64,000 nt of DNA from Chitinivibrionales bacterium (GCA_038247415.1 JBBRUX010000021.1:1-64000); one strand, 5' to 3'; positions 32,283-48,500 are shown, counted from the stretch's first letter. The notes: a model not told the origin generated them from the sequence alone. Made by a program: numbers and translations.

Positions 32283-33949
32283 GAATACTTTCTGCACTCC
32301 TTTGTTTTGCCGTATGCGCATTACTTGCGTGCAGCCATAGCACTACTCTTTCGGGCGGTACCACAACAGAAACCACCAATGGGCTCACTGCATGCGTTCG
32401 TTATGCCGATGGGTCGCTTGCTGCCAACGCGATAATTTCAATTCGTCCGCAACTATATTTGCGCGGGATTGATACTGTTAGCACCGCCGATTCAAACGAT
32501 GCAGTAACATCCTCAAAAGGCATGTTTGTAGTGGGAGGATTACGGGCAGGAATGTACCGCCTAACCATTCTAACCCGCGATTCTCTCTTTGGTGCAAGCA
32601 TCTCAGATCTTTCTCTGGGAAAAGGAGCAAACTCCAAAGCGGATACTATTCAGATCGATACCATTATTCTTGAGCATACTGGTTCTCTTGCTGGATTTAT
32701 ACCCTTCGATAGCTCAACAAGCGCACCACGTGTTGTCCTTCGTCTTTACGGAACAGATTTTATTGACACCATTAATCCTGGTACCCGATTTGTCTACGCT
32801 GGTTTTGCACCAAGCAGCTATCTTCCGGCTGTATCAATTAACAGGTTGCCTAGCTTTTCAATAGATACCGTACAAGTTCTCGCACATGATACCGCCATAC
32901 TTACAGGTGCTCCTTTTTTTAATCCAACTGCCTTTGCAGGCAATAAAAAAATTCTGGTCAATACCTCGCAAAGCGGAACGCTCCTCACAACAGATGTCAC
33001 GCAGTTTCCGCTTTTAGTGCGTCTTAACTCTACCGACCCCACAGATTCTGCTATCTTTGTGCATTCACCTAATTCTAATTATATCCAATTTTTTTCTAAC
33101 GATTCGATCCCTTTACAATTTGAAGTCGAAGAATGGGACACCCTAGCCTCACCAAAAACAGCCTGTTTTTGGGTAAAAGTCCCCACACTCTATGCAAATG
33201 ATTCGATTCAGGCGATACACCTTTATTATGGGATTTACACAAAACCCTCCCACCCAACCCTGCGTCTATTTGACAAAGGCTATGGCTATTCTGCGGTGTG
33301 GCACCTTTGCGAAAAAAGCAGAGACTCTCTTTACGACGCAACAGGAACCGTAACCCTTGTGTCGTCATTTTCTCAACGCCAACCGGGACCTGCCCTTATT
33401 GCAGGTGGACAAAAATTAAATGGGGTATCACAGTATATTGACGGAGGCGATTTTAATTATTTTAACGGGGCCACTTCCTTCACTATTTCGATGTGGGTAA
33501 ATGCCGACACATTCCCTTTTGAGATGATTCATCTAACCTCCACAGCTGGATTGCCTCAAGAGCTCAATCGCGCGTCGTTAACCATCGATAGCCTTGGGAA
33601 CATAATCGCCTACGGCTCAAATAGTGATTCATCGAGATCACTACTCACGGCGTATAGCACATCAAAACTATCTACTCATACATGGTACTTAATAAGTGGC
33701 ATTTTTATGTTTGCTTCAGATTCTATCGTCATTAATGTTAACGGTACCGAGGCTCCCACTCTCCGCAGTGGAACAATGGGCAGCGTGCAAGGCTCAGGTA
33801 TCACTACTGCACCTGTAAAGTGCTCAATCGGCTACGACCCATTACAGCACAGCGGTTATTCTAAGGGCACGCTCGATGAAATAAGAATGTTTCGTTCTGC
33901 ACTCTCAGCCGATTGGCTAAAGCTATGCTATACAAGCCAGCTACCATAA
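32279..33949 (+). CDS. Lipoprotein with DUF2341 and LamG-like domains
   Basis: Lipobox LLAC then GGTTTETTNG; FPLLVRL...FEVEEWD...FWVKVP (DUF2341); FTISMWV...WYLISG...GTLDEIRM (LamG); ATGA overlap with the upstream gene. Confidence 0.85.
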   Translation: MRILSALLCFAVCALLACSHSTTLSGGTTTETTNGLTACVRYADGSLAANAIISIRPQLYLRGIDTVSTADSNDAVTSSKGMFVVGGLRAGMYRLTILTRDSLFGASISDLSLGKGANSKADTIQIDTIILEHTGSLAGFIPFDSSTSAPRVVLRLYGTDFIDTINPGTRFVYAGFAPSSYLPAVSINRLPSFSIDTVQVLAHDTAILTGAPFFNPTAFAGNKKILVNTSQSGTLLTTDVTQFPLLVRLNSTDPTDSAIFVHSPNSNYIQFFSNDSIPLQFEVEEWDTLASPKTACFWVKVPTLYANDSIQAIHLYYGIYTKPSHPTLRLFDKGYGYSAVWHLCEKSRDSLYDATGTVTLVSSFSQRQPGPALIAGGQKLNGVSQYIDGGDFNYFNGATSFTISMWVNADTFPFEMIHLTSTAGLPQELNRASLTIDSLGNIIAYGSNSDSSRSLLTAYSTSKLSTHTWYLISGIFMFASDSIVINVNGTEAPTLRSGTMGSVQGSGITTAPVKCSIGYDPLQHSGYSKGTLDEIRMFRSALSADWLKLCYTSQLP

Positions 33950-33974
33950 CGTCGGCTTTTTTATGTCAAGTGGG

Positions 33975-34180
33975 TTAGGGAGTACGAAATGTGACGGTGT
34001 AAACGGAGTGCCCCCGGCAGTACGTGAGGTCTCAGGCGCATAAGCGCCGCAAGAACGAGCGTACCGGCTTGCGAAGCAAGAGCGTAGGAGGAGCCGCATC
34101 GGAACATACCCCAAGGGTACTTCCTTTGGGCGCCCGAAGGGGTGAGGCCCAACAGCGAAGCCGAAACGCCCAAAATCTTG
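33975..34180. repeat. GC-rich multi-hairpin intergenic element (MITE/REP-like or structured RNA)
   Basis: Hairpins GGCGC-ATAA-GCGCC (34035-34048), CTTGC-GAA-GCAAG (34068-34080), GGAACATACCC-CAA-GGGTACTTCC (34101-34124) and TTGGGC...GCCCAA (34126-34152); composition differs sharply from the flanks. Confidence 0.5.
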
Positions 34181-34222
34181 ATTTGTCACCACTCTATCAA
34201 TCCCTCAACGTATATTAATTTC

Positions 34223-34384
34223 ATGTCAAGAAAAAAGCTCATCATGATTGGGATGGTTGTAGGATCTCTGTTGGGGGGTTTTGTTGTCTCCCTTTTTGGA
34301 GCGGGTGCATTTTCATTTACTTCACTGATTGCAAGTTCAATTGGTGGATTACTCGGCATCTTTATCGTTTTCAAGTATACATAA
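34223..34384 (+). CDS. Small Gly-rich membrane protein (53 aa)
   Basis: MSRKKLIMIGMVVGSLLGG...SIGGLLGIFIVFK, two TM helices with glycine zippers. Confidence 0.75.
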   Translation: MSRKKLIMIGMVVGSLLGGFVVSLFGAGAFSFTSLIASSIGGLLGIFIVFKYT

Positions 34385-34451
34385 CTTTGCATTCATGAGG
34401 TCGGTTTTTATTGCTCACGCATTTTACTCGTAACACTTTCAAGGAACAAGC

Positions 34452-34922
34452 ATGAATATCGGCATTGTTTTTCATTCACAAACAGGACACACATTTGCCT
34501 TCGCACGGAGCATCGCATCTGTGTTGAGAACAAAAAATCACACTGTGGAGCTGCTGCCTATTTCTACCAAGCACAAGACACACCCCGGGATGCGCGATGT
34601 AAAACTCGATTCGATTCCAAACCTTACTGCGTTTGATGGAATCTGTTTCGGCTCTCCCACGTGGGCTTTTGCTGCTACGCCGATTTTTATGACATTCATG
34701 AACACACTTAGCACACTCGCCAATAAAAAATGTGCCATTTTTGCCACTATGGGATTTCCACACCCCTCTTTGGGTGGAAGCAGAGCTATTTCTCAAATAA
34801 ATCAGCGAATTATATCTTTAGAAGGAACAGTAATCGCCACAGAAGTTGTGCCTCTGCTCTTTCATAATTTTAATAAATGCACAAAAATTGGAGCCCAACG
34901 AATTGCTGAAGCATTTCAATAA
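34452..34922 (+). CDS. Flavodoxin-family protein
   Basis: HSQTGHT FMN-binding loop, FGSPTWAF, AIFATMG. Confidence 0.88.
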   Translation: MNIGIVFHSQTGHTFAFARSIASVLRTKNHTVELLPISTKHKTHPGMRDVKLDSIPNLTAFDGICFGSPTWAFAATPIFMTFMNTLSTLANKKCAIFATMGFPHPSLGGSRAISQINQRIISLEGTVIATEVVPLLFHNFNKCTKIGAQRIAEAFQ

Positions 34923-35010
34923 AGCGAGCTGTTTTTGCATCTGATTCCTGTCTCATCCTATATTTTAGCAGACCTATCTTTTCCATTCATTTTTACGCAC
35001 AACCATAACT

Positions 35011-36555
35011 ATGCCAAATCTTATTAACAATAGCCCTTCGGCACTGCCCTATATTACCGTAGTAGTACCCGTTTACAATGAAGAATATACGCTCAAAACA
35101 ACGCTCGAAAGTCTACAGTCGCAAGATTATCAAGGTCGTTTCGACATTCTTGTTGTTGATAATGCCTCAACCGATACAAGCGCTGAAATTGCCCGATCTA
35201 TGGGGGTGATGGTTGTTTCAGAACTCCGTAAAGGCTATGTGCATGCAGTACGCGCAGGTTTTGGTGCTGCTCCGGGAGACATCATAGCGTGCACTGATGC
35301 AGATACCTTCAACTCAAAAACATGGCTCTCCCAAATCGCCCACAATCTGACAGTTCGCGGTGCGGTTGCGTGTAGCGGATCTTTTCTTTTTAACGATGGA
35401 AGCAAACTTATAAAATTTATTGGTTGGGCATTTGGTCGCCTCAATTGGCATTTGGCTGGTGCTAACATGGCAGTCTGGAAATGGGCGTATCAAAAGGTTG
35501 GTGGTTTTAATCACGATATTAATTTGGGAGCCGATGTAGAAATTGGATTTCGGATAAAAAAACTTGGGAAAATAATAATTGACAGAAAGCTTATTTCGTA
35601 CACTTCCTCCCGAAGATTTCAAGTTGCTTTTTGGCAAACCCTGTTTCTGTATTACTGCAACGACCTTTGGCTTATCTTATTTCGCAAGCCGCTTTTTTAT
35701 GAGTTTCCCATAATCCGTATTCCGCAAAAAATCTTTAAACGCCAAGTCCCTCATCTGCAATGGGGATTGTTAACGCTTATTCTTATCATTTCTTGTTCCT
35801 GGTTTATAGAACGTCCTGGCAGTGACCTTTTAGGAACGGTCATGCACCAGGGGTCTGCATCACTTAAAACGGTAGCCCTTACCTTTGATAATGGACCTTC
35901 ACCGCAAACACTCCAGGTACTGGATATTCTTAAGCGATATTCTGTAAAAGCAACCTTCTTTATGGCAGGAAAAGAAATTGTCCGGTATCCAGATATTGCC
36001 AGACAAGTAATTATTGACGGACAGGATATTGGCAACCATACCTTCAGCAACTCCATCTGGTCACCCATCGAGCTTTCTCATCAAATCGATAAAGAGCTCG
36101 ATTCAACGTCGTCACTTATCCAAAAGACAACAGGTATTTCGACCAAGCTTTTTAGACCACCCCACGGGCTACGATCCCCCTGGATGATCTCTCAAGCTAA
36201 TAAAAAAGGCTATACAGTCATTTTATGGAATATTGCACCCAACGAATGGCTCTATCCCGATAAGAACAGAATAATTCGTGATGTTAGCAAGCGTGTTTCG
36301 CCAGGATCGATTATTCTTCTTAATGATGGGGCCTCATCCGATGCTCCACCCCTTGCGCATCAACATACCATTGCTGCATTGCCCGGAATTATCGAGAATC
36401 TTCAAGCCCAAGGGTATCATTTTGTTACTATTTCCGAATTGCTCGTGGAAGAAGGCTATCAACAACCCGCTTCCAGTGCCTGGGCGAAATTTTCTTTTGA
36501 TTCCCTCATCTCTCTCACCGCCCGCATCTACGAAGCTCGTCCCTTTAAAAACTAG
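35011..36555 (+). CDS. GT2 glycosyltransferase fused to a CE4/NodB polysaccharide deacetylase-like domain (degenerate active site)
   Basis: VVVPVYNEE, VVDNASTD, TDAD and SSRR; TM segment; ALTFDNGP, ATFF, GNHTFSN, FRPPHG and ILLND. Confidence 0.88.
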   Translation: MPNLINNSPSALPYITVVVPVYNEEYTLKTTLESLQSQDYQGRFDILVVDNASTDTSAEIARSMGVMVVSELRKGYVHAVRAGFGAAPGDIIACTDADTFNSKTWLSQIAHNLTVRGAVACSGSFLFNDGSKLIKFIGWAFGRLNWHLAGANMAVWKWAYQKVGGFNHDINLGADVEIGFRIKKLGKIIIDRKLISYTSSRRFQVAFWQTLFLYYCNDLWLILFRKPLFYEFPIIRIPQKIFKRQVPHLQWGLLTLILIISCSWFIERPGSDLLGTVMHQGSASLKTVALTFDNGPSPQTLQVLDILKRYSVKATFFMAGKEIVRYPDIARQVIIDGQDIGNHTFSNSIWSPIELSHQIDKELDSTSSLIQKTTGISTKLFRPPHGLRSPWMISQANKKGYTVILWNIAPNEWLYPDKNRIIRDVSKRVSPGSIILLNDGASSDAPPLAHQHTIAALPGIIENLQAQGYHFVTISELLVEEGYQQPASSAWAKFSFDSLISLTARIYEARPFKN

Positions 36556-36710
36556 CACCTTCACACACAAGATGCAGACAATTCTCGCCCTTGGCTAACA
36601 ATCTATTGTATGATAATTGTACATCACGTATATTATTTTTTAAGCAGCGTACACCACTTCGATACACAATACAACAACGTAAACAAAAAACTACCTATCG
36701 CGGTGGTACT

Positions 36711-37049
36711 ATGCTTATGCAGAATTTTTTAAAACACTTTTTTTTGCCGATACTATGCGTGGCTATCCCGTGTACGGGCGAAGTTTCTCAAACGCACAAG
36801 TCAACAAAAGCAAGTAATGCAAAAAAGGATTCTGCAGTTTTAATAAAAAAAGGAACGCCGAAATCTTTTTCTAAAACCGAAGAAATCGATTCGATGCTTA
36901 TTTCTCCCAAAGAAAGTAGCAACGACTTTTCTTTAGACAGCACCGATCATTTGTTTTCCGAAAAACATCAAAATGTGGATGCCGATTTTTTAGATACCAG
37001 TGGTGGAAGCTTCGATACTCTTGTGCAATCTAAAAAAGCTGATAACTAA
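36711..37049 (+). CDS. Hypothetical secreted, low-complexity protein
   Basis: Signal-peptide-like N-terminus followed by a K/S/D-rich region; GGTGG before ATG. Confidence 0.55.
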   Translation: MLMQNFLKHFFLPILCVAIPCTGEVSQTHKSTKASNAKKDSAVLIKKGTPKSFSKTEEIDSMLISPKESSNDFSLDSTDHLFSEKHQNVDADFLDTSGGSFDTLVQSKKADN

Positions 37050-37102
37050 GACACCGCTAGGGTGCGTTTGTTTTGTAAACGTTTTAAAGGAGTTTTGCGC
37101 AC

Positions 37103-38437
37103 GTGAAGGAAAGGACTACTGTTTCTGCTGAACCCGAAATGTGTGCCGACACAGAGCCCCCCAGTACCCACAGCAGAAAAAAATCTCCCGCTGCTTCATC
37201 GTTTGCACTTTCGGGCGCTAAGCTTGACACATCTTTAGAGGCTTCAATTGCTTCGGTAATTGCAAGCAATCGTCCATCTTCCAAATCTACTGCATTTCGC
37301 AAGAAATACTTTCCCACTGCAACGCTTGCCGACTGGAACGATTGGAAATGGCAGCTTACTAATCGACTCACCACAGCCGAAGACCTTGAACGGTTTCTCG
37401 AACTTTCGCGCGCAGAGCGGAGTGCATTTACAAACGATAGCACCGTTCTTCCCTGTGCGGTTACGCCCTATTACGCATCGCTTTTGCGAGACAGTGAGCC
37501 CCTCAACCCTTTGCGGCGCAGTGTTATTCCAACCGACAATGAACATGTCCGCTCGCCGGGCGAAGCAGACGACCCTCTGTGTGAAGATCTTTACAGTCCA
37601 CACTCCTGTCTTGTGCACCGATATCCAGATCGTGTACTCTTTCTTGTTACCACACAATGTGCCACCTACTGTCGTTACTGCACCCGATCTCGCATGGTTG
37701 GCAAGCCACACGAAACAGGCACGCGCGCATCGTGGGAAGAGGCTCTTGACTATATACGATCAACGCCAACCATTCGAGATGTTCTTATTTCTGGTGGAGA
37801 TCCACTTACGCTTGCCGATGACCAGCTCGAATGGCTCCTCTCGCGCCTTCGTGCAATTCAACACGTTGAGATAATCCGGATTGGAACCAAAACACCTGCA
37901 GTTCTCCCTCAGCGTATCAATCTATCACTCATTCGCATACTCAAGCGGTTCCATCCTTTATTTATAAGTATTCATATCACGCACCCCTCAGAGCTTACCC
38001 GAGAAATGAATCAAGCCTGTATCCGGCTTGCAGATGCGGGAATTCCTTTGGGAAGCCAAACCGTACTTTTGGCAGGTATCAATGACGATGCAGAAACCAT
38101 GAAACTTCTTACCCAATCGCTTCTCAAAATTCGCGTTCGTCCCTATTATCTTTATCAATGCGATCCCATCACCGGCTCATCTCACTTTAGAACCCCCATT
38201 GCAAAAGGTATCGATATAACGCGAAGCCTTCGAGGGTTTACAAGCGGTTATGCGGTGCCAACGTTTGTTGTTGATGCACCCGGCGGTGGTGGCAAAATTC
38301 CACTCGCTACCGATTATACGGTCGGTAAGGAAGGTGGCGATTTAATCCTGAGAAATTTTAGAGGAGATCGATTCCGCTATCCAGATTATGCAGGTGCCAC
38401 TCCTGTGCGATTTAAGCAAATGGAGCTTCCACTGTAA
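37103..38437 (+). CDS. kamA: KamA-family radical SAM aminomutase (lysine 2,3-aminomutase-like)
   Basis: WNDWKWQL, HRYPDRVL, CATYCRYCTR, SGGDPL, QTVLLAGINDD, PYYLYQCD and PLP-lysine motif VDAPGGGGKIP; RBS AAGGAG. Confidence 0.9.
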   Translation: MKERTTVSAEPEMCADTEPPSTHSRKKSPAASSFALSGAKLDTSLEASIASVIASNRPSSKSTAFRKKYFPTATLADWNDWKWQLTNRLTTAEDLERFLELSRAERSAFTNDSTVLPCAVTPYYASLLRDSEPLNPLRRSVIPTDNEHVRSPGEADDPLCEDLYSPHSCLVHRYPDRVLFLVTTQCATYCRYCTRSRMVGKPHETGTRASWEEALDYIRSTPTIRDVLISGGDPLTLADDQLEWLLSRLRAIQHVEIIRIGTKTPAVLPQRINLSLIRILKRFHPLFISIHITHPSELTREMNQACIRLADAGIPLGSQTVLLAGINDDAETMKLLTQSLLKIRVRPYYLYQCDPITGSSHFRTPIAKGIDITRSLRGFTSGYAVPTFVVDAPGGGGKIPLATDYTVGKEGGDLILRNFRGDRFRYPDYAGATPVRFKQMELPL

Positions 38438-39420
38438 TGCACCTTGGTATTACCTACGATCTCCGAGAAGAGTATCTTGCTCTTGGGTATTCTCTCGAAG
38501 CAACTGCCGAATTCGACAGCATCGAAACGATCGATGCTCTTGACAAAAGTCTTGTATTGTTAGGGCACACAACTTCCCGCATAGGAAATATCCGGTCGCT
38601 TGTTGGAGAATTGGCTCAAGGAAAAACGTGGGATCTTGTTTTTAACATTTCCGAAGGAATGTACGGATTTTCCCGTGAAGCACAAATTCCTGCACTGCTG
38701 GATGCCTATGCCATTCCCTACACATTTTCCGACCCGCTCACGCTCACGCTCGCCTTGCATAAAGGTATGGCCAAGCGCGTTGTTCGTGATGTGGGAATAC
38801 CTACTGCACCATTTGCAATAGTCAATGTTTTAGCCGATTGTGATACCCTTACGTTGCCGTATCCTCTTTTTGCAAAACCAATTGCAGAAGGTACTGGAAA
38901 GGGAATTACCGCAGCTTCCCGCATTTCATCATGTCAAGATCTTAAAGAAACTTGTTCGGTACTTCTTGCAACTTATAAACAACCGGTGCTTGTTGAAACG
39001 TATCTTGCAGGAAGAGAATTTACTGTTGGCATAACTGGATATGGAGCGCTGTCTAGCGTTATTGGTAGTATGGAAATTGTGATGCGCGATAAAGCAGACC
39101 AGGGTGTATACACGTACCGAAACAAAGAGTTTTGCGAAGAACTTGTAGACTACCGCACTACAGCCGACGCTGATGCACAAAAAGCCGAAGCAGTTGCCCT
39201 AGCTGCCTGGAACGCGCTCGGTTGTCGCGATGCAGGAAGAGTTGACATACGGCTCGATGGGACAGGAGTTGCGCATTTTATTGAAGTGAATCCAGTAGCA
39301 GGAATGCACCCGACACATTCTGATCTTCCCATGATTTGTTCTCTGAATAAAATATCCTATACAGAACTCATTGAGCGTATTATCAAATCTGCAGCAGCGC
39401 GCTCTGCACTCTGTTTATGA
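38437..39420 (+). CDS. ATP-grasp ligase, D-Ala-D-Ala ligase-like (copy 1)
   Basis: VFNISEG, PYTFSD, HKGMAK, KPIAEGTGKGI, ETYLAGREFTV, RVDIR and EVNP motifs; TAATG overlap with kamA. Confidence 0.9.
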   Translation: MHLGITYDLREEYLALGYSLEATAEFDSIETIDALDKSLVLLGHTTSRIGNIRSLVGELAQGKTWDLVFNISEGMYGFSREAQIPALLDAYAIPYTFSDPLTLTLALHKGMAKRVVRDVGIPTAPFAIVNVLADCDTLTLPYPLFAKPIAEGTGKGITAASRISSCQDLKETCSVLLATYKQPVLVETYLAGREFTVGITGYGALSSVIGSMEIVMRDKADQGVYTYRNKEFCEELVDYRTTADADAQKAEAVALAAWNALGCRDAGRVDIRLDGTGVAHFIEVNPVAGMHPTHSDLPMICSLNKISYTELIERIIKSAAARSALCL

Positions 39421-40415
39421 GTAACCCTTGTGTTAAACATATAGCTATTGTTTTTAATGCCCCCTCAGCGCACGCGCTTATTGATGAAGCAGACGTCCTG
39501 GTTGAAGTTGAAGCCGTTAAACATTCTCTTGTGCAGCTTGGCTTTGCAGTTTCGGTTTTTGGAGCTACGGTTAATCTTCTTCTTCTCAAGGATTTTCTCC
39601 TTAGTCAAAAACCCGACCTTGTTTTTAATCTTACCGAATCACTCGATGGTAAAGAACGGTTAATTTGTGCCATCCCCTTGCTTTTAGATACTCTTAACAT
39701 TCCCTACACCGGTAGTGCGGCAGATCCGATGTATCTCACAAGCTGCAAAAAAATAGCCAAAGAAATTATGCTCCTCAAGGGCATTTCAACCGCTCCGTAC
39801 GCAATGGCTCAAGAAATCTTGGTCCAAAAATCCATTTCCTTCGATCCGCCTTATATCATTAAGCCTATCGATACTCACGGATCCCTAGGTATAGAAGAAG
39901 ATTCTATTTGTGAATCTTTAGAGTGTCTGCTCGTTAAACTCTCTGGCTATTCTAAAGCTGCTTTATCTCGGATAATGGTTGAAGCATTTATTGACGGTCG
40001 CGAATTCAATATTTCTCTTATGGGTAATGCTCGCTCTCTAGAAATTATGCCACCCGCAGAAATTCTTTTCGAGGATCATTTTACGCACAAGCATAATCTT
40101 GTAGGGTATAAGGCAAAATGGATCGAGGACGCTCCAGAATATGCCGGAACACCCAGATCTTTTGATTTTGGATCATCCGATGCACCTCTGCTTATCCGCG
40201 TCAAATCCTTAGCACGCGAAGCTTTTCTTGCATTTGATCTGCACGGCTATGCTCGCGTTGACATGAGAGTCTCTATGGCAGGCGTTCCCTATGTTTTAGA
40301 AGTAAATGCAAATCCTTGTATTTCTCCCGAAGGCGGCTTTGTTTCGGCTACTGCCATGGGAGGATACGATTATACAGCGACACTACACAAAATCGTGGAG
40401 ATTTCGCAATGGTAA
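39417..40415 (+). CDS. ATP-grasp ligase, D-Ala-D-Ala ligase-like (copy 2)
   Basis: VFNLTES, PYTGS, KPIDTHGSLGI, EAFIDGREFNI, YKAKW, GYARVDMR and EVNANP motifs; ATGA overlap. Confidence 0.9.
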   Translation: MSNPCVKHIAIVFNAPSAHALIDEADVLVEVEAVKHSLVQLGFAVSVFGATVNLLLLKDFLLSQKPDLVFNLTESLDGKERLICAIPLLLDTLNIPYTGSAADPMYLTSCKKIAKEIMLLKGISTAPYAMAQEILVQKSISFDPPYIIKPIDTHGSLGIEEDSICESLECLLVKLSGYSKAALSRIMVEAFIDGREFNISLMGNARSLEIMPPAEILFEDHFTHKHNLVGYKAKWIEDAPEYAGTPRSFDFGSSDAPLLIRVKSLAREAFLAFDLHGYARVDMRVSMAGVPYVLEVNANPCISPEGGFVSATAMGGYDYTATLHKIVEISQW

Positions 40416-40921
40416 CTTTTCGTACCGATGTTGTGCCCTACGACTCTAAAAATGTTAAGGCTCTTGTAGCATCCACGGGAGTTTTTCACGACTACGAAAT
40501 AGACGTTGCCCAAGAACTTGTTGACGCCAGGCTTGAGCAGGGTATCGCAAGTGGCTATTTTTTTATTTTTGCGGAACGCGAAGGCGCTCTGGTCGGCTAT
40601 TCTTGTTTCGGCCCCATAGCCTGTACTCGCGCGCGATTCGATTTATACTGGATTGCTGTTCATAAAGCATCGCAGCATTCTGGTATTGGTAAATTAATTC
40701 ACGAAGAAACAGAACGCGCAATCGCATCTGCACAGGGTGAGCGACTTTACGCAGAAACGTCCTCCACGCTTCATTATACGCCAACACGGCGGTTTTACGA
40801 ATCAGTAGGATATTCTCTTGTAGCTCAGATCGCAGATTTTTATGATAACGGGGATGACAAATGCATTTTTGAAAAGAAAATTGTAACCCAGTATAGTTCT
40901 TACGTTGATGAATTCTTTTAA
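40409..40921 (+). CDS. GNAT family N-acetyltransferase
   Basis: DLYWIAV...QHSGIGKL (acetyl-CoA motif A), ETSS...YTPTRRFYESVGY; ATG 40409 after GGAG overlaps the upstream stop. Confidence 0.9.
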   Translation: MVTFRTDVVPYDSKNVKALVASTGVFHDYEIDVAQELVDARLEQGIASGYFFIFAEREGALVGYSCFGPIACTRARFDLYWIAVHKASQHSGIGKLIHEETERAIASAQGERLYAETSSTLHYTPTRRFYESVGYSLVAQIADFYDNGDDKCIFEKKIVTQYSSYVDEFF

Positions 40922-40952
40922 CACGCATTTATTTAACCGGGAGTGATATTCT

Positions 40953-43136
40953 ATGCGATATTTCTTTTTTTGTGTACTTGCACTCGCCAGCCTCCACTTT
41001 ATACCATCGCTTGCTTTTGCAGAAAGCACTTCTGATTGTACCCAAAAACCTATTGCATCTGGGTATGGTGCCGATGGCAGATTTACCGTGAAGCTCGATA
41101 GCATTATGCTCAAAGGGGAAGGAAACGATCGCGTGTATTTCTTTCGGCCTGATACAGCGGGCCAATTTCCTTGTATCTTTTTTTGTCATCGCTATGGAGA
41201 TATTTCATATGAAGAATACTCTCACCTTATCAATCATCTGGTAAGCCGAGGAAATTGTGTTATCTATTCGCCCGCACGCACAATAGATTTCACCGAAAAA
41301 CAAATTCGCAGCACCGCAATTCCCTACACAGGGATCGTTGATGCTGTCAATTATTTTAAGACATATCTCGATACAACACTTATTGGGTGTATTGGTCACA
41401 GCTTTGGCGCCGGTGCAGCCCCTGCAATTGTTTACAACTATCTTACCGAAAAGCATTGGGGCACTCGTGGTTCCTATCTTTACCTCATGTCTCCTTGGTA
41501 CGCCTACGGTAACGACATACGCAAACTGAGGGCATTTCCTTCACAAACTTCTCTTGTTGTGCAAATTTTCGATCAGGATCGGATCAATGATCCACGCATT
41601 GGTCTTGACATTTTCAATTCTATTGATATCCCATTGCAGCGCAAAAAATTTCTTATTGTGCGCTCAGATAAAAGAGGGGATTGTCAACTGAGGGCAGACA
41701 ACTTTACTCCGTTTAGTAATAATGCCATACTGGGAGAAGAAAACAGTTTAGATTATTATGGGATTTTTAGGATTGTCGACGGCTTAGCAAACTATGCCTT
41801 TTACAAGGACACGAGCGGATACTCAATTGCCCTGGGCGGTAGTGGCGCGCGCGATATCACGATGGGACAATGGCCCGATGGTATCGGCATAAGGACAATG
41901 CTTGCTCTGGATTCACCTTCCGTTTATTTTCAAAATGGCCTTTTTGTAAACAATTGGGAAAGCTTACGCAATCCCCGCATCGATGCAACACGCTTTCGTC
42001 AGGCGAGAAAGGTTTTTGGGGGCTTTATTAAAAAAACTGCCAAACTCTATGCTACAACAATAAAAACTGCTCTCAAAGAGCCCCGCGTACAGGTCGCTAA
42101 TCTCGAGTCTGAGGGTCTTGATATAATGCCTAATCCAATACTTCACGGATTCGGCGCGGACAGCAGCTTTGGCATGACGGTTGACAGCTTTCCACGACCG
42201 GATCTTCCTTTTCCTATTCAACAAAAAGGGTGGGTGTACGTTTTTCGTCCAAACGGCATTCACATCAAAACACCTGTTCTTTTCATGTTGCACGGCTATA
42301 TCGGCCAAGATTACCAAAGTTTTCAACCGCTTATATCGCATATTGTCAGTAAGGGGATTTCGGTTGTATATCCTACATATCCGTTTTTGCCCAAATTTAT
42401 AAATGAAAAAGGCGTTTTAGATAAATACGCTTATGTGTATGCTGGCCTCGATTCGGCACTTGTACGCTTTTCGAAAGGCTTTGATACTACCCGCATCGGT
42501 TTCTTTGGGCAATCGTTTGGCGGGGGCATGGTTCCTGCTGTAGCCTATAAAATGATTGTTACCAAGCACTGGGGAAGCATGGGATCCTTCATGTTTATGA
42601 GCGCCCCTTGGTATTCGTTTGATATCACACCCGAACAGCTTGCATCATTTCCGTCTAGCACCATGCTTCTTATGCAGGTCTATAACGACGACTGGATGAA
42701 TGATCATGAAATGGCAGTTGACATTTTCAATTCAATTGGTATTCCTCAAAGTCAAAAGGATTTTGTAACACTCTATACCGATTCTCTGGATGGTTACACA
42801 ATGCTTGCTAATCACTTTTTGCCCTACGGTGTCAAGAATATGTATGGGCAGCTCAATTTACACGATTATTACGGCGTATTCAGATATTTCGATGCTCTTG
42901 CAGCCTACTCGTGGTATGGTACAGAAAGCGGCAAATCTATCGCATTGGGCCATGGGAGTAAAAAGCAATGCTTCATGGGCACATGGCCAGATGGCAAACC
43001 TATTCGCCCTGCGTCGGTTTTATTGCAGCCAAAGGCACTTCATCCAGAATTGCAATATGTTTATTCTTGGGACAACAAACTCAATCCGCGACGCCTGGTA
43101 TCTGCTCCCGTTGCGCAAGACTCTTTATCACACTAG
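40953..43136 (+). CDS. Secreted protein with two tandem alpha/beta-hydrolase domains
   Basis: Signal peptide; GHSFG at about 41394 and GQSFG at about 42507; duplicated WG..GS...MS.PWY, DIFNSI, DYYG.FR, MG.WPDG..IR and W....NPR blocks. Confidence 0.85.
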   Translation: MRYFFFCVLALASLHFIPSLAFAESTSDCTQKPIASGYGADGRFTVKLDSIMLKGEGNDRVYFFRPDTAGQFPCIFFCHRYGDISYEEYSHLINHLVSRGNCVIYSPARTIDFTEKQIRSTAIPYTGIVDAVNYFKTYLDTTLIGCIGHSFGAGAAPAIVYNYLTEKHWGTRGSYLYLMSPWYAYGNDIRKLRAFPSQTSLVVQIFDQDRINDPRIGLDIFNSIDIPLQRKKFLIVRSDKRGDCQLRADNFTPFSNNAILGEENSLDYYGIFRIVDGLANYAFYKDTSGYSIALGGSGARDITMGQWPDGIGIRTMLALDSPSVYFQNGLFVNNWESLRNPRIDATRFRQARKVFGGFIKKTAKLYATTIKTALKEPRVQVANLESEGLDIMPNPILHGFGADSSFGMTVDSFPRPDLPFPIQQKGWVYVFRPNGIHIKTPVLFMLHGYIGQDYQSFQPLISHIVSKGISVVYPTYPFLPKFINEKGVLDKYAYVYAGLDSALVRFSKGFDTTRIGFFGQSFGGGMVPAVAYKMIVTKHWGSMGSFMFMSAPWYSFDITPEQLASFPSSTMLLMQVYNDDWMNDHEMAVDIFNSIGIPQSQKDFVTLYTDSLDGYTMLANHFLPYGVKNMYGQLNLHDYYGVFRYFDALAAYSWYGTESGKSIALGHGSKKQCFMGTWPDGKPIRPASVLLQPKALHPELQYVYSWDNKLNPRRLVSAPVAQDSLSH

Positions 43137-43153
43137 CTTATCAGGAAACAACC

Positions 43154-43567
43154 ATGGGCACTCTCTCTTTTTGTCACGACTATGAACCGCTTTCCTATCC
43201 AGAATCGGACCTCATCAAAGTAGCCGCGTCAATCTTTAAAAAAGAGAACGTTAAAAAGTCGACTTCTATTACTGTGATCCTCTGTTCCGATTACACAATC
43301 CGCAAACTCAATAAGCAGTTTCGGAAGAAAGACAAAGCCACCGATGTTCTCTCTTTCCCCATTACTTCCGATGATGGTTTTTTGGGGGAGATTTACATCT
43401 CGCTACAACGGTGTGCAGTCCAAGCAAAAGACTATGGATGGAGCTACAACGAAGAAATTTCCCGGATGCTTGTTCACGGCATTTTTCACTTGCTTGGATA
43501 CGACCATCTAAAAAAAACCGAAAGAGCTGCCATGGAAGCCAAAGAACGCCTGTATTGCTCCTTTTAG
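43154..43567 (+). CDS. ybeY: rRNA maturation endoribonuclease YbeY
   Basis: LNKQFRKKDKATDVLSFP, LGEIYIS and HGIFHLLGYDH motifs. Confidence 0.95.
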   Translation: MGTLSFCHDYEPLSYPESDLIKVAASIFKKENVKKSTSITVILCSDYTIRKLNKQFRKKDKATDVLSFPITSDDGFLGEIYISLQRCAVQAKDYGWSYNEEISRMLVHGIFHLLGYDHLKKTERAAMEAKERLYCSF

Positions 43568-43683
43568 GCACAGTATGCTTACGCAAACAATCTAAATGCC
43601 ATTCTGATTTTGATTGCGATGTATTTTCCTTTTTTGGGTGATGTACTGGATACTTTACTTTTTTCTAGGGTCTTGGAGGATGT

Positions 43684-44973
43684 GTGAATTTGTACGCGCT
43701 TCAATTGATACTTCTATTTCTGTGTGTTGTAGGGTCCGCTTTTTTTTCTATAATTAAAATTGTTTTTATTACCTTTAGAGCCAATCAAGCAATTGTAGAA
43801 GACGAACTCCCAGAAAAATCGATACTTGCCATAGAGGCAATCCTTAAAGACACCCTACGATTTGCTGCTACAATCTCTCTGGGAAAAAGTGCCTCAACTG
43901 TAGGAACCGCAATTCTTGGAGTTGTTTTTTTAATGTCCCATGTTCCATCAAGAACCCCCACCCTCATATTCTTTTTTGTTATTATGCTTTTGGCTCTGGA
44001 AATATGTGCCTACACCATTCCCCATGCCCTTGCACTGCGGTACTACCGGGCCCTGGCACCCCTCTGCATTGCACTTTACAAGAGCATAAGTTGGCTCTTA
44101 TTGCCTGTTGTCATTATTCTGAGTACGCTTTCCGCCATTATTTTATCTCTTGTTAAATACGATAAACGCTTAGCCTTTTTATCCGAAGAAGAAAAACAGA
44201 GAATTAGCAAAACCGAAGACGCCGAAACGCATCTCGACGAATCGGAAAAAGAAATGATCCATAGCATCTTTGAAATGAGCGAAACCATTGTCAAAGAGAT
44301 TATGGTCCCCCGTATCAATGTAACAGGAATACCAATAACTGCCGATCTTAAAAACATTTTGGGTATTATCCGCTCGCAAGGCCATTCACGCATGCCGGTG
44401 TATAAAGATACGATAGATTCTATTGTTGGTATCCTGTATGCAAAAGATATTCTTGGGTGGCTTGCCGAAAACAAAGAGACTGCAACCTTTACCCTTAACA
44501 CGGTGATGAAAAAGCCACATTTTGTGCCAACAACTAAAAAGATCGACGAACTCATGCGTGAGTTCAAACACAAACATTTACATATTGCAATTGTTGTCGA
44601 TGAATATGGCGGGACCGCAGGGATGGTCACCATGGAAGACATTCTGGAAGAAATTGTAGGAGAAATCAACGATGAATACGATGTTGAAGAAGCAGAAATA
44701 GTAGAGGTGTCAGAGAATATCTACACCATCGATCCGCATATCGATCTCTCCGATCTTGAGGAAAAACTCTCTATCGACCTCGGGCTCAATACACCAGGAT
44801 ACACCACACTCTCTGGTCTTATTTATCATGAATACGGAGATATTCCAACCGAAAATGGAATTCTTGACTTTCGCTCGATTCGCATTAAAGTTCTCAAGAT
44901 GAATCACCAGCGCATAGAGCGCGTTTCCGTTACTGTCCTCTCTCCCAAAAAATCGGACAACGATCCCGAATAG
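43684..44973 (+). CDS. HlyC/CorC-family (CNNM-CBS-CorC) membrane protein
   Basis: TM region, EIMVPR, HSRMPVY, IVVDEYGGTAGMVTMEDILEEIVGEINDEYD. Confidence 0.93.
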   Translation: MNLYALQLILLFLCVVGSAFFSIIKIVFITFRANQAIVEDELPEKSILAIEAILKDTLRFAATISLGKSASTVGTAILGVVFLMSHVPSRTPTLIFFFVIMLLALEICAYTIPHALALRYYRALAPLCIALYKSISWLLLPVVIILSTLSAIILSLVKYDKRLAFLSEEEKQRISKTEDAETHLDESEKEMIHSIFEMSETIVKEIMVPRINVTGIPITADLKNILGIIRSQGHSRMPVYKDTIDSIVGILYAKDILGWLAENKETATFTLNTVMKKPHFVPTTKKIDELMREFKHKHLHIAIVVDEYGGTAGMVTMEDILEEIVGEINDEYDVEEAEIVEVSENIYTIDPHIDLSDLEEKLSIDLGLNTPGYTTLSGLIYHEYGDIPTENGILDFRSIRIKVLKMNHQRIERVSVTVLSPKKSDNDPE

Positions 44974-44990: not shown

Positions 44991-45524
44991 ACGAATAAAA
45001 TTGTTTTTGCAGGTCTTGTTGTAGCTACAAGCATTTCTCCTCTGGCGGCATTTACCGAAATAAGTATCGATTCGTTGCATGCGCGTATCGCTAATAGTGC
45101 CCCCATGATAATGATTGACGTGCGAACAGCTTCTGAATATCAATCGGGCCATATTGCTAACACTTCATTGCACACGTGGGTAAGCCCAACAGTTTCCGAC
45201 TGGCAATCCCTGCCGTCTGGTACCGATATTGTTGTAATTTGTCAATCTGGAAACCGCGCAGGGGCGGCATCTGTTTTTTTAGATACTGCTGGTTCAAATA
45301 AATTTGCGGGGCATGTTCTGCGTATGACCGGAGGGATGACTTCCTGGTCTGCCAAGTATGCAGTTGTTGCACTTAAAGAAACTTTGGCGCGGGCGTCGGG
45401 CTCTTTTGCAGCTGCGCACGTGCAAACAAATACCTACGATCTCTCTGGCAAAGTATATCATGCACATCCAACATCTCGACGTACTCTTTTAACTTTTCAG
45501 AACAAGAAAATCATCAAGCACTAA
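44991..45524 (+). CDS. Secreted rhodanese-like protein with basic C-terminal tail; apparent ACG start
   Basis: IDVRTASEYQSGHI, CQSGNRA and MTGGMTSW motifs. TAAGGAGGT at 44978-44986 precedes an in-frame ACG that opens a signal-peptide-like sequence. Tail TYDLSGKV. Confidence 0.75.
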   Translation, partial: TNKIVFAGLVVATSISPLAAFTEISIDSLHARIANSAPMIMIDVRTASEYQSGHIANTSLHTWVSPTVSDWQSLPSGTDIVVICQSGNRAGAASVFLDTAGSNKFAGHVLRMTGGMTSWSAKYAVVALKETLARASGSFAAAHVQTNTYDLSGKVYHAHPTSRRTLLTFQNKKIIKH

Positions 45525-48500
45525 AATGTAAGTCGAACACTTCCTTTAAATGAGTGCTGTTCAGTTTTGGAACTTAAAAGTTCATCGTTATTATGTGTAA
45601 ACGAATATGAAATCGTACTAACTACATTATCAGTAAAATCGTAACTTACATGCGGTGTGAGCGAAAAGTTGTTAGTATTACGCAATTCGGCCTTGCCCCC
45701 TTCTGGAATTGAATCAGTATAATTCTCCCAGCTATGTTTGTATTCCGCCTCTGCTCCCATAACCACGCGGCCCTTGATAGAGATTGTATATTTGAGCAGT
45801 TTAATATCACGGGCAATTCCCGATTTTTCTATAGTATAAGCAGTACTCCATTTATTTCCTACTTCGGTTGCTTTAGAGCGGCGTGCAGTAGAAGCGACGA
45901 GAATATCGGAATTAGATAGATTAATATCGTATGAGAGGGAGATTGGCAATGCTTTGATTATTGACGAAACGCCAACCAGCGGAGACCAACCGTTTCTAAT
46001 CTCTTCACCATACTGGTATTCTACTTTTAATATATTGTCCCGCCTAACCGACGTTGTATTCTTTTTAGAATAACTATACGACGAGCGAAGCGTTGGAGTT
46101 TCTAAATTATCCTGTACCACCTTGAGCTGGCTTAGCATCCCACTGGATGCAGATATGCCTAATCGCGGAGACGTTATTGCGGTATCGAGTGAGCTGAGTG
46201 GATTTGCTGGAACAGTAAATGATTTTTCAAAGTCCAAACTTATTTCAGAAAATTGGATGTCAATTGGTTTTGGAAATGAGAGAGAGGCGGTAGACCATTT
46301 CCAATTTTGCGTGGTTGTACGTTTATCATTTGTTGCATTGGGCATAATCCCGCCGTTTGCAGCAAGTCGACTCTCTGTGCCGCCAAAACCGCGTGGATTA
46401 TCCATTGTGCCTTTTATTCGACTTAAAAAAGGCCTACTTCCCATAAAACCTAAACTATAGCGCATAAGGCCAAAACCACCCCAGTTTTTGTCAATCATTT
46501 CGATATCATCAACTGAATACAACCCATTGAGCAAACTTAACCTTCCTGTATAAGTCACTGATATCGACGAAAAATTAACTTGATCGAGCATTGCACCAAA
46601 TTGCTTAAATGTTGTTGTTAAGAATGCGGATCGCTGTGTTGCCAAGGTTGCATCACGAACCCAATCTCGAATATTTACATTGCCAGAAAATCCAAACGAA
46701 TTATCAAGCGCAAGCGTAAGCTTTGTTCCGGCAGCTTTGCGATCGGGAGTAGCTGTATAATTAGACGTATAATCGAAATTATTATCAAGCCATGAAATAA
46801 GTTTTGGATTAAACTTTAAGCTGGTATTTTGCGTGCGCGAATCTTCTCCCATAAAAAACCATAACGTTGACAAAGCTTCGTCCCGAGCAAAGAAAACATC
46901 TCGTGCGGATTGAGTTTGCGAAAGATACGGTGCAAGGTTTCGCGCAGAGTTTAGGGAATAATCTAGTGACAACAAAGGGGAAATAGGAGCCCAACCAAAG
47001 GTAAAACCATGCCCAGCCGAAAAACTTCTAGAATCGTCGTAAATCGGGGTACTTTCGAAATGCTTTTGGGCAACACTCCAGTTTATTGTTGCAATAGTAA
47101 GCGAAAAGCGGGAGGGCAAAAGCATTACCTCGTACCTTTTAAAATCTTCTGGAAGCCACGCGAGCGTGTCTGTATCCATAAAACCAAAAGGCCGCCATTT
47201 GGCCCACTCTGGCTGATTACGTGGTGTTAAATCGTAGGTAAGGCCACCGCCATACGAGGTGTTTCGCGTGGTATCAACATAATCTCCAAAACCGCTTGGT
47301 TTAGAACCCTGCGATGCTTTTGTTTCATTAAACTGGTAGGTTACATTTTCTATACCAACACGTTCTGTTAATAAATTAATAAAGATGTTATCTGAAGAAG
47401 ATTTGTGATAACTTGTTGAAAGTGATGTTGTAGCAGTTGACGTTTGATAATGACGAGAGCGAGACTCTGCGAGAGAACCAAATCTGTTTGGCACCACATT
47501 CTGGACCAGATCATGATACATGTCCCCTAAATTGTCTGGTTCCCCCGGAGATTTTGTGAGAGTAATATCCGTTCCTGGGCGAAGTTGCGGTCTATCGAGG
47601 GTACTGGTTACTGCAGCTGCAACGGGAATTGACACTTTCCACTCGTCGGGTAAAAACTTATCAAATTTAAGGCTCCCGTCCATTCCCACCGTAACACGAG
47701 AATTATTACGAGATCGTGCATCATCGGTCATGGTTCTAAAGTTGCCATCTCGATAATCCATAGAACCTCGCAAAGACACAAAGTCTGCCCACTGGGTAGA
47801 AATAGATGCAATTGCAGCGGTACCAGAAATCGATTTAAGTCCCGAAGCTTTTAATTCATCTACCCATATTTCTCCGGACGAAACGGCATTGCCATACCCC
47901 AAGCGAGACACTCCAACCGTCAGTTGACGAATAGACGAAAAGCTGGGAACTCCCTTATTGCGAGAATAAATGCGTAAGGTATCCCCAGGTTTAGGACTAT
48001 ATGCTTTATTGATCGATAAGAATGCAGGATATTGCTCGAAATAGCGCAGTTTTTGAGAAGCTAGCTCTGCAAGGTCAATTTCAATAGGATGGCTCCACGG
48101 GGAGTCATAGTTCCAACCTGTTCGTATAGGAGTTTTGTACTCATAATAAGTCGAATCGTTTGTTCCAAACCTTAAAACCAAATAAAGAGAATCGTTGGGA
48201 ACAAGTGTCTTTCCATGAACAAGCATGGTAATTTTATCGTAGGGAGATATATCGATATTGCCATAGGTTAGAATTTTTCTGGCTACCACGCTTTTGTTTT
48301 GTTCAACATTGGTATAGCTAATAAGCAGTGATTGTTCTTTGGTTAGAATATTATTGGCATCTCGCGTTCTAATCAGGTACGGTTCTGTAGGCGCAACATA
48401 AATGCTCTTGTCATCTTCGGTATTTACTACTGAGACATTTACAAGGTTATTTGTTCCTCTTAAATCGGGGGCACTTTTATACCCGCTATCGGCAGAAAGT

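Follow-up and report, generated by a model that had tools for sequence, protein, structure and literature searches.

The window analysed here, a stretch of 64,000 nucleotides from a Chitinivibrionales bacterium (GCA_038247415.1, JBBRUX010000021.1:1-64000), carries a compact cassette of four genes that probably builds an acetylated derivative of beta-lysine. In an open reading frame (ORF) reading of the window, four consecutive + strand ORFs with overlapping ends span 37103-40921. They encode a KamA-family aminomutase, two ATP-grasp ligases derived from D-Ala-D-Ala ligase (Ddl), named Lig1 and Lig2 here, and a small GNAT acetyltransferase. The features are as follows (aa, amino acids; PLP, pyridoxal phosphate):

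37086..37092, + strand: Shine-Dalgarno-like AAAGGAG, 10 nt 5' of the aminomutase GTG, read from the sequence
37103..38437, + strand: KamA-family radical-SAM/PLP lysine 2,3-aminomutase-like gene, 444 aa (Pfam Radical_SAM and LAM_C)
38437..39420, + strand: Lig1, Ddl-derived ATP-grasp ligase, 327 aa (Dala_Dala_lig_C, 90.2 bits); its start overlaps the aminomutase stop
39417..40415, + strand: Lig2, a more divergent Ddl-derived ATP-grasp ligase, 332 aa (Dala_Dala_lig_C, 60.8 bits, and ATP-grasp_3); its start overlaps the Lig1 stop
40409..40921, + strand: small GNAT N-acetyltransferase, 170 aa from the ATG (Acetyltransf_7, _1 and _10); its start overlaps the Lig2 stop

The stop and start codons of adjacent genes overlap as TAATG (38435-38439), ATGA (39417-39420), and ATGGTAA (40409-40415), exactly as described in an earlier note on this DNA. 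A promoter/terminator scan found no terminator-like site between the four genes on the + strand; its promoter-like sites were uninformative, occurring at the level of shuffled sequence (24 found vs. 21 expected). An Rfam scan of 33500-44000 detected no riboswitch or other Rfam family, the single match (E 0.29) being a chance hit. The sequencing runs listed as containing this stretch are all recorded as DNA. On this reading of the sequence, the four genes are translationally coupled and constitute one operon. The start of the aminomutase is uncertain, being either the GTG at 37103, preceded by AAAGGAG, or an in-frame ATG at 37139. Relative to the solved Clostridium enzyme (2A5H), the protein has an N-terminal extension of ~67 aa, which is partly alignable in several orthologs (tblastn alignments beginning at query residues 7-16). 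Since the flanking ORFs (152 aa upstream and a 727-aa esterase-like protein downstream) have no relatives in any of 80 related loci (the best 80 of at least 596, described below), the unit is considered to be the four genes.

Sequence features of the four enzymes

The aminomutase was aligned with the lysine 2,3-aminomutase of Clostridium (2A5H) over residues 68-434 (E 6.6e-126). The alignment bears out the earlier description of a KamA-like enzyme, as the CxxxCxxC motif (CATYCRYC), D293 (in YQCD), D330 (in VVDAP), and the PLP lysine K337 (in GGGGK) of 2A5H are all conserved. Asp293 and Asp330 bind the epsilon-ammonium group of lysine in lysine 2,3-aminomutase, and Lys337 holds PLP; the presence of lysine-type substrate residues, which had also been proposed, is thereby supported. 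With regard to family models, the protein passed the KamA subfamily model TIGR00238 (340.3 bits vs. a cut-off of 199.2) and stayed below the cut-offs of the AblA model TIGR03820 (461.5 vs. 525.4), which was the best-scoring equivalog model, of the glutamate and arginine 2,3-aminomutase models (419.4 vs. 650 and 373 vs. 600, respectively), and of the EpmB model (254.6 vs. 369.3). The genome has no other KamA-family gene.

The closest solved relatives of both ligases are D-Ala-D-Ala ligases (E 4.1e-23 for Lig1 and 2.5e-14 for Lig2). Both proteins nevertheless failed the Ddl subfamily model NF002378 (cut-off 243 bits), with 146 bits for Lig1 and 98.2 bits for Lig2, whereas the controls scored 439.5 (E. 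coli DdlB), 256.8-357 (five Ddl from cassette-bearing genomes), and 268.9 (the genome's own Ddl, a separate canonical enzyme encoded on contig C6). In a quick maximum-likelihood tree of 71 rows, which included every second member of the Lig1 and Lig2 families, Lig1 (29 rows, support 100), Lig2 (31 rows, support 88), and canonical Ddl (7 rows, support 99) formed separate clades. The ligases thus do not group within canonical Ddl, in agreement with the model scores and with the original view that they are not canonical members of that family.

The catalytic machinery was compared in a family alignment that contained 56 Lig1 and 60 Lig2 members, E. coli DdlB, and the Ddl of this genome. DdlB K97, K144, E180, E187, K215, R255, D257, E270, and N272, which have ATP, Mg, or phosphoryl-transfer roles, are kept in both window ligases and conserved in 56/56 Lig1 and 59-60/60 Lig2 members. 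The N-terminal GGxSxE motif is absent from both ligases, as the earlier note had stated; however, the glutamate of that site is retained, because the column of DdlB Glu15 holds Glu in both families (TAEFD in 56/56 Lig1 members and D-E-x-D in 48/60 Lig2 members). With this glutamate and the conserved catalytic residues, both ligases look catalytically competent.

The positions that bind D-Ala in DdlB (Ser150, Tyr216, Gly276, Ser281, and Leu282) have diverged from Ddl, and differ between the two ligases, by family-invariant changes. In Lig1, Ser150 is replaced by Thr, Tyr216 is lost in a gap, Gly276 is kept, Ser281 is Ser, and Leu282 is an invariant Asp (56/56). In Lig2, Ser150 is replaced by Gly or Ala and Ser281 is Gly, Ala, or Ser, while Tyr216 is Trp, Gly276 is Cys, and Leu282 is Gly in 60/60 members each. 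Alignments to solved relatives also recovered the previously reported difference at the EVN loop (EVNPVAG in Lig1 vs. EVNANPC in Lig2). Invariant acidic residues occur in the substrate regions (E25, D27, and D296, the last at the Leu282 position, in Lig1; D23 and D26 in Lig2) and would suit positively charged substrates, for instance beta-lysine or another amine. It is therefore proposed, from residue patterns, that the substrate pockets have been remodelled away from D-Ala-D-Ala. A predicted Lig1-Lig2 complex reached a median score of 0.29 (mark 0.32) and was not used as evidence.

Four extra Ddl-like paralogs from cassette-bearing genomes (L105:539-1564, L108:309-1451, L111:354-1397, and L116:304-1404) lie on long branches beside Lig2 in the tree. 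They are 27-30% identical to Lig2, have no NCBIfam match at E up to 1e-40, and may represent a third orphan ligase family.

The cassette GNAT had no match to the AblB model TIGR03827 at E up to 0.01, and its best NCBIfam match (RimI, 33.9 bits) is under the cut-off of that model. Among solved structures, the GNAT has an ortholog in 2R7H (E 5.6e-41 over residues 2-157), a structural-genomics entry that has no assigned function and whose record reads 'putative D-alanine N-acetyltransferase of GNAT family'. A literature search by the 2R7H code, locus tag, and molecule name found no paper on that protein by title, and an atlas look-up returned only the GNAT's own family.

To our knowledge, the known fates of beta-lysine are few, namely the osmolyte N-acetyl-beta-lysine, the modification of elongation factor P (EF-P), fermentation, and some antibiotics. 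Searches of the whole genome (96% complete) found no match to AblB (TIGR03827) or to Kce/BKACE, the 3-keto-5-aminohexanoate cleavage enzyme (PF05853), and no EpmA above cut-off; the best genX match, a 524-aa frame with 203 bits vs. 286.9, is probably lysyl-tRNA synthetase. The remark that no lysine-fermentation gene or EpmA is nearby therefore holds genome-wide, and the AblAB system fails to explain the unit, as had been suspected, since an AblB-type GNAT was found neither in the protein nor in the genome search. With AblB, Kce, and above-cut-off EpmA all missing from this genome, the only evident partners of the aminomutase appear to be its three operon neighbours. The product of this layout had been regarded as uncharacterized, and no paper on the combination of KamA, two ligases, and a GNAT was found in the open literature, subscription journals being outside the scope of the search. 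The portions available of PMC3543383 (which cites Pflueger et al. 2003) and PMC11201294 cover AblA/AblB only.

Like AblA/AblB, the cassette combines a KamA-family aminomutase bearing the lysine-binding aspartates with a GNAT, so that an acetylated beta-lysine moiety is likely here as well. Unlike AblA/AblB, it has two ATP-grasp ligases between these genes, its 170-aa GNAT is unrelated to AblB at the model level, and its aminomutase is under the AblA cut-off. The ligases share the fold, ancestry, and all ATP/Mg/phosphoryl-transfer residues of Ddl (E. coli DdlB, PDB 2DLN/1IOV) but differ in lacking GGxSxE, in the changes at positions 150, 216, 276, and 282, in scores under the cut-offs, and in their separate clades. 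The EpmB/EpmA pair likewise uses a KamA-family aminomutase to supply beta-lysine for ATP-dependent amide ligation, whereas here both Epm models are under cut-off, the ligases are of the ATP-grasp rather than the aminoacyl-tRNA synthetase-like type, and the distribution is patchy. A further parallel, one of logic and not of sequence, is the synthesis of N-acetylglutaminylglutamine amide (NAGGN), an N-acetylated short peptide solute made by Ngg (a bifunctional GNAT/ATP-grasp enzyme) and AsnO. In both cases an ATP-grasp ligase is found joined to, or next to, a GNAT, with Lig2-GNAT proteins as the fused form here. Unlike NAGGN synthesis, the cassette would draw a beta-lysine building block from a dedicated aminomutase, its ATP-grasp enzymes are of the Ddl type, and a second ligase takes the place of the amidotransferase. 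The tests run place the unit outside the AblAB, Ddl, EpmAB, and lysine-fermentation systems; it could be likened in part to AblA/AblB and in part to NAGGN synthesis.

Conservation, co-occurrence, and gene fusions

A database search at E up to 0.001 gave at least 3352 homologs of Lig2; among the matches listed, the closest apart from Lig2 itself are 45-47% identical. Lig2 homologs carry the database name 'D-alanine--D-alanine ligase', and GNAT domains are also present in 10 of the 120 listed, which are proteins of 506-534 aa. When species-representative genomes were scanned with a Lig2 alignment, at least 596 (of 600 stretches) encoded a relative. The architectures of the best 80 loci, determined by tblastn with the four window proteins, were as follows:

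KamA-Lig1-Lig2-GNAT: 42/80 loci
KamA-Lig1-Lig2: 17/80 loci
Lig2-GNAT: 9/80 loci
Lig1-Lig2-GNAT: 7/80 loci, mostly cut by contig ends
KamA-Lig2-GNAT: 3/80 loci
KamA-Lig2-GNAT-Lig1: 1/80 loci
Lig2 alone: 1/80 loci

By record names, these loci span at least nine phyla and include Desulfobacterota, Bacteroidota, Spirochaetota, Planctomycetota, Acidobacteria, Alpha- and Gammaproteobacteria (among them a Coxiellaceae metagenome-assembled genome, MAG), Anaerolinea (Chloroflexota), Dependentiae, and a Patescibacteria MAG. The locus L053, whose record is that of the isolate Virgifigura deserti SYSU D60014, carries all four genes. Genes missing at a locus were mostly found elsewhere in the same genome. 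Lig1 was present as an ortholog (51-56% identity) in four of five genomes tested, the fifth having a partial 39% match; KamA (55-61%) was found in four of five, with none in G208; and the GNAT (44-51%) in four of five, with none in the 1.4-Mb genome G213. In one case (G204) the cassette is split into a KamA-Lig1 pair and a Lig2-GNAT pair. The neighbourhood survey proposed in the earlier note thus recovered the four-gene order in many other genomes.

The phylum of the window was surveyed in 201 genomes, with thresholds of E up to 1e-30 for Lig2, 1e-60 for Lig1, and 1e-20 for the GNAT, and at least 57% identity for KamA. These genomes are kin, so that the counts describe the sample and carry no statistical test. 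Lig2, Lig1, the GNAT, and high-identity KamA occur in 12/201 genomes each and together occupy 13; all four genes are present in 10, two or three in 3, and none of Lig1, Lig2, and the GNAT in 188. The incomplete carriers are G013 (without GNAT), G081 (without a Lig2 match at the threshold), and G016 (81% complete, only Lig2 and GNAT). With the same order in 42/80 loci from many phyla and this nearly all-or-none co-occurrence, the arrangement exceeds chance.

KamA enzymes of the phylum fall into two classes: one of high identity (57-66%), found in 12/201 genomes among those with the ligases, and a second that is 36-51% identical to the window's enzyme and occurs in 26/201 genomes without the ligases and the GNAT. 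Because the first goes with the ligases and the second without them, the cassette aminomutase is, as judged by identity and co-occurrence, a distinct KamA subfamily. Carriers of the second class comprise G107, G125, and 24 others, two of which belong to the window's own family.

Neither the ligases nor the GNAT were found in other members of this family (0/6 genomes), and Lig2 matches within the phylum reach 43% identity at best, no more than those from other phyla. Given this distribution, the cassette is an accessory trait and has probably been transferred. A plasmid collection yielded only four distant matches (28-29% identity), so that the cassette is not plasmid-borne in that collection.

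A search for longer proteins gave 53 matches at E up to 1e-30, of which 12 were examined together with two fused Lig2 homologs:

Lig1-Lig2 fusions: 7/14 examined (P0121-P0124, P0130, P0133, P0134)
Lig2-GNAT fusions: 3/14 examined (P0017, P0020, P0157)
Lig2-like-KamA fusion: 1/14 examined (P0173, confirmed by Pfam)
Double Lig1-like proteins of a more distant family: 3/14 examined (P0140, P0149, P0169)

The earlier note had raised a heterodimer of the ligases as one option; the natural Lig1-Lig2 fusions make a close cooperation of the two likely. The view that the four genes represent one conserved functional unit is supported. The double Lig1-like proteins (~680-700 aa, two halves with 31-39% identity) form a separate tandem ATP-grasp family, and one of them is named from Enhygromyxa salina.

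Clustering of 801 ORFs from the 80 loci revealed one broadly recurrent non-core family, a ~590-aa protein in 15/80 loci (L006 among them) with a weakly GNAT-like N-terminal half and a Hist_deacetyl domain. This composition was confirmed in eight of nine extra ORFs that were typed, the ninth being a transporter of the major facilitator superfamily (MFS). In L017, the deacetylase is fused to the cassette GNAT (754 aa). Among solved structures, the deacetylase is closest to acetylpolyamine amidohydrolases (6PHR, E 1.6e-73; 9GKZ; 3MEN; 3Q9B), which outrank HDAC6 and, by far, other protein deacetylases; unlike them, the cassette form has the extra N-terminal GNAT-like domain and sometimes the fusion to the cassette GNAT. 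Because of this kinship, the accessory enzyme suggests a small molecule in which an aliphatic primary amine is acetylated, for example in an N-epsilon-acetyl-(beta-)lysyl moiety. The cassette-type deacetylase was not found in the window or its genome, where the HDAC-family genes are of another type (32% identity over 209 aa). Among the 80 loci, no transporter, regulator, cell-wall, mur, membrane, or carrier-protein gene is conserved with the unit.

Predicted pathway and alternative explanations

We slightly favor the view that the operon encodes a cytoplasmic, self-contained route whose product is an acetylated amide or short peptide of beta-lysine. In this scheme, the KamA-type enzyme would convert L-lysine to beta-lysine, a step suggested by the retained lysine-binding residues. 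Lig1 and Lig2 would then each form one amide bond in an ATP-dependent manner via an acyl-phosphate, with beta-lysine and one or two other amines or carboxylates as substrates. The idea of two ligations, raised in the earlier note, is favored because both ligases have kept all catalytic residues. The GNAT would N-acetylate a free amine of the substrate or product, most likely a lysine-type epsilon-amine, since the accessory 'eraser' found at about one-fifth of the related loci is of the acetylpolyamine amidohydrolase type. By general chemistry, acetylation of the epsilon-amine ahead of carboxyl activation would also block lactam formation, and N-acetyl protection against such a side reaction is used in other pathways. 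The product would presumably stay in the cytoplasm and act there as a compatible solute, as a stress metabolite, or in the manner of a polyamine. A modification of the cell wall, which had also been considered, is less likely, since no mur, cell-wall, or membrane gene is found among the conserved neighbours and the accessory deacetylase is of the small-molecule type.

Stated in full, this would be an undescribed, phylum-spanning beta-lysine metabolite, an amide or short peptide assembled by two Ddl-derived ligases and switched on and off by acetylation of a terminal amine (the GNAT as writer, with an eraser in one-fifth of carriers), serving as a new compatible solute or polyamine analogue; to this complete version we give a little less than an even chance. 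Several points weigh against the scheme. The case for lysine as the substrate is built on two aspartates in an aminomutase that is under every equivalog cut-off. The acetylation site is deduced from an accessory gene that is missing in this genome. Lig2-GNAT may not always act on beta-lysine, because one of the five Lig2-GNAT genomes tested (G208) has no close KamA. No osmoregulatory or transport gene is consistently linked to the unit in the 80 loci, so that the compatible-solute role is only an analogy. Finally, the patchy occurrence in the phylum (12/201 genomes, 0/6 in the family) fits an accessory trait and is silent on its role.

It is improbable, though less so than the other alternatives, that the same enzymes make a different product, either an oligomer or polymer containing beta-lysine, on which the two ligases would act in alternation or iteratively (a polyamide reserve similar to cyanophycin or to RimK products), or a conjugate of beta-lysine with a di- or polyamine whose charge is switched by acetylation. 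Cyanophycin synthetase, RimK, and glutathionylspermidine synthetase are precedents for polymerising or polyamine-acylating ATP-grasp enzymes, and the invariant acidic residues in the ligase substrate regions are compatible with such products. The kinship of the accessory deacetylase to acetylpolyamine amidohydrolases and its fusion to the cassette GNAT in L017 would moreover fit the writer/eraser logic of polyamine homeostasis. However, members of the Ddl lineage are known to form dipeptides in a single turnover, genes for a primer, storage granule, or depolymerase are not conserved in the 80 loci, and polyamine biosynthesis genes are not linked to the unit. We consider it unlikely that beta-lysine, later acetylated, is attached to a macromolecule such as a translation factor or other protein, a peptidoglycan stem peptide, or a lipid head group. 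Although beta-lysine is carried by EF-P in other bacteria, Ddl relatives function in cell-wall synthesis, and an ArfB-like RF-1-domain gene is found near the cassette in five Bacteroidales loci and adjoins the displaced GNAT in L117, this adjacency is limited to one lineage and a single further case. A distribution as patchy as the one in this phylum is unlike that of a core translation or cell-wall function, the EpmA search and the EpmB score speak against the known EF-P route, and both the conserved neighbours (free of mur, membrane, and carrier-protein genes) and the small-molecule type of the deacetylase argue in the same direction.

There is a similarly small chance that the unit makes a secreted bioactive beta-lysine peptide, resembling an antimetabolite or antibiotic, with the GNAT for self-protection and the deacetylase for activation. 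Beta-lysine is found in several antibiotics, acetylation of a beta-lysine moiety is known for streptothricins, and an acetylation/deacetylation pair is compatible with a pro-drug logic, as is the patchy, transfer-like spread of the cassette (in-phylum Lig2 no closer than that of other phyla) with a trait of this kind. Against it, no exporter is conserved (one MFS protein among the nine extra genes typed, and EamA in one Bacteroidales lineage only), other tailoring or regulatory genes are absent from the conserved neighbours, the plasmid collection gave few and distant matches, and the same minimal set of four genes across many phyla is unusual for secondary metabolism. The most conventional explanation would be that the ligases are spare D-Ala-D-Ala or D-Ala-D-X ligases and that the aminomutase and GNAT are AblA/AblB or belong to lysine fermentation. 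The database names 'D-alanine--D-alanine ligase', the name of 2R7H, and AblA as the best-scoring equivalog model all lean this way. This reading is nonetheless contradicted, and was rejected as highly improbable, since the ligases score far under the Ddl cut-off, fall outside the Ddl clade, and have altered residues at the D-Ala-binding positions, a canonical Ddl is encoded elsewhere in the genome, neither the GNAT nor the genome matches AblB, Kce/BKACE was not found, and the four genes co-occur strictly in the phylum survey.

Under the favored scheme of an acetylated beta-lysine amide or short peptide, a compact unit present in at least 596 species-representative genomes suggests an additional fate of beta-lysine and, if true, a non-cell-wall function for two families annotated as 'D-alanine--D-alanine ligase'. 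The identity of the product would correct the names of at least 3352 homologous database proteins. If the scheme is true, a new compatible solute or polyamine analogue would exist in hundreds of mostly anaerobic species, and the product could prove to be a stress metabolite widespread among anaerobes of sediments, digesters, and the gut. Heterologous expression of so small a unit is directly feasible, and the GNAT family already has a crystal structure (2R7H). The cassette is real, widespread, and misannotated, and its gene structure, residue conservation, distinctness from Ddl, conservation as a unit, co-occurrence, and fusions are observed; what we infer is its chemistry (the substrate, the number of ligations, and the acetylation site) and its physiological role.

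Other genes around the cassette

The 727-aa ORF downstream of the cassette (40953-43136, + strand), which has Chlorophyllase/Abhydrolase_3 matches, begins 31 nt past the GNAT stop with no terminator-like site between them, and may be co-transcribed. It is probably unrelated to the cassette, since it was never found beside it in the 80 related loci. On the other side, a 514-aa ORF (35011-36555, + strand) combines a family-2 glycosyltransferase domain and a polysaccharide deacetylase domain in one frame, and the minus strand carries a very long ORF (45521-51859, 2112 aa).

The second-largest neighbour cluster is a Cys/Met PLP enzyme (7/80 loci). Smaller clusters include PhoU_div and PHO4 genes in 5-6 Syntrophales-type loci and UDG, CYTH, EamA, and RF-1-domain genes in 5-6 Bacteroidales loci. 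With the exception of the PLP enzyme, each of these minor clusters is confined to one lineage, and they were therefore rejected as parts of the pathway and read as lineage synteny. The RF-1-domain (ArfB/ICT1-like) gene is located upstream of the cassette in five Bacteroidales loci (L039:2326-2751, L052, L072, L076, and L079), and in a Desulfobacterales genome an RF-1-domain gene (L117:1053-1592, minus strand) directly adjoins a displaced cassette GNAT. Such adjacency may reflect synteny within a lineage or, faintly, hint at a connection with translation.

A Cys-rich protein with a CxxCxxCC domain (PF03692) is encoded between KamA and Lig1 in one locus (L004:3866-4492) and after KamA in another (L100:2637-3218). 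A related ORF cluster occurs in 5/80 loci, in addition to L100, with no member in this window. In the fusion protein P0133, residues 1-152, ahead of Lig1-Lig2, form a CxxCxxCC domain that is 53% identical to the L100 protein. The CxxCxxCC protein may serve as a metal or Fe-S helper of the aminomutase or the ligases.

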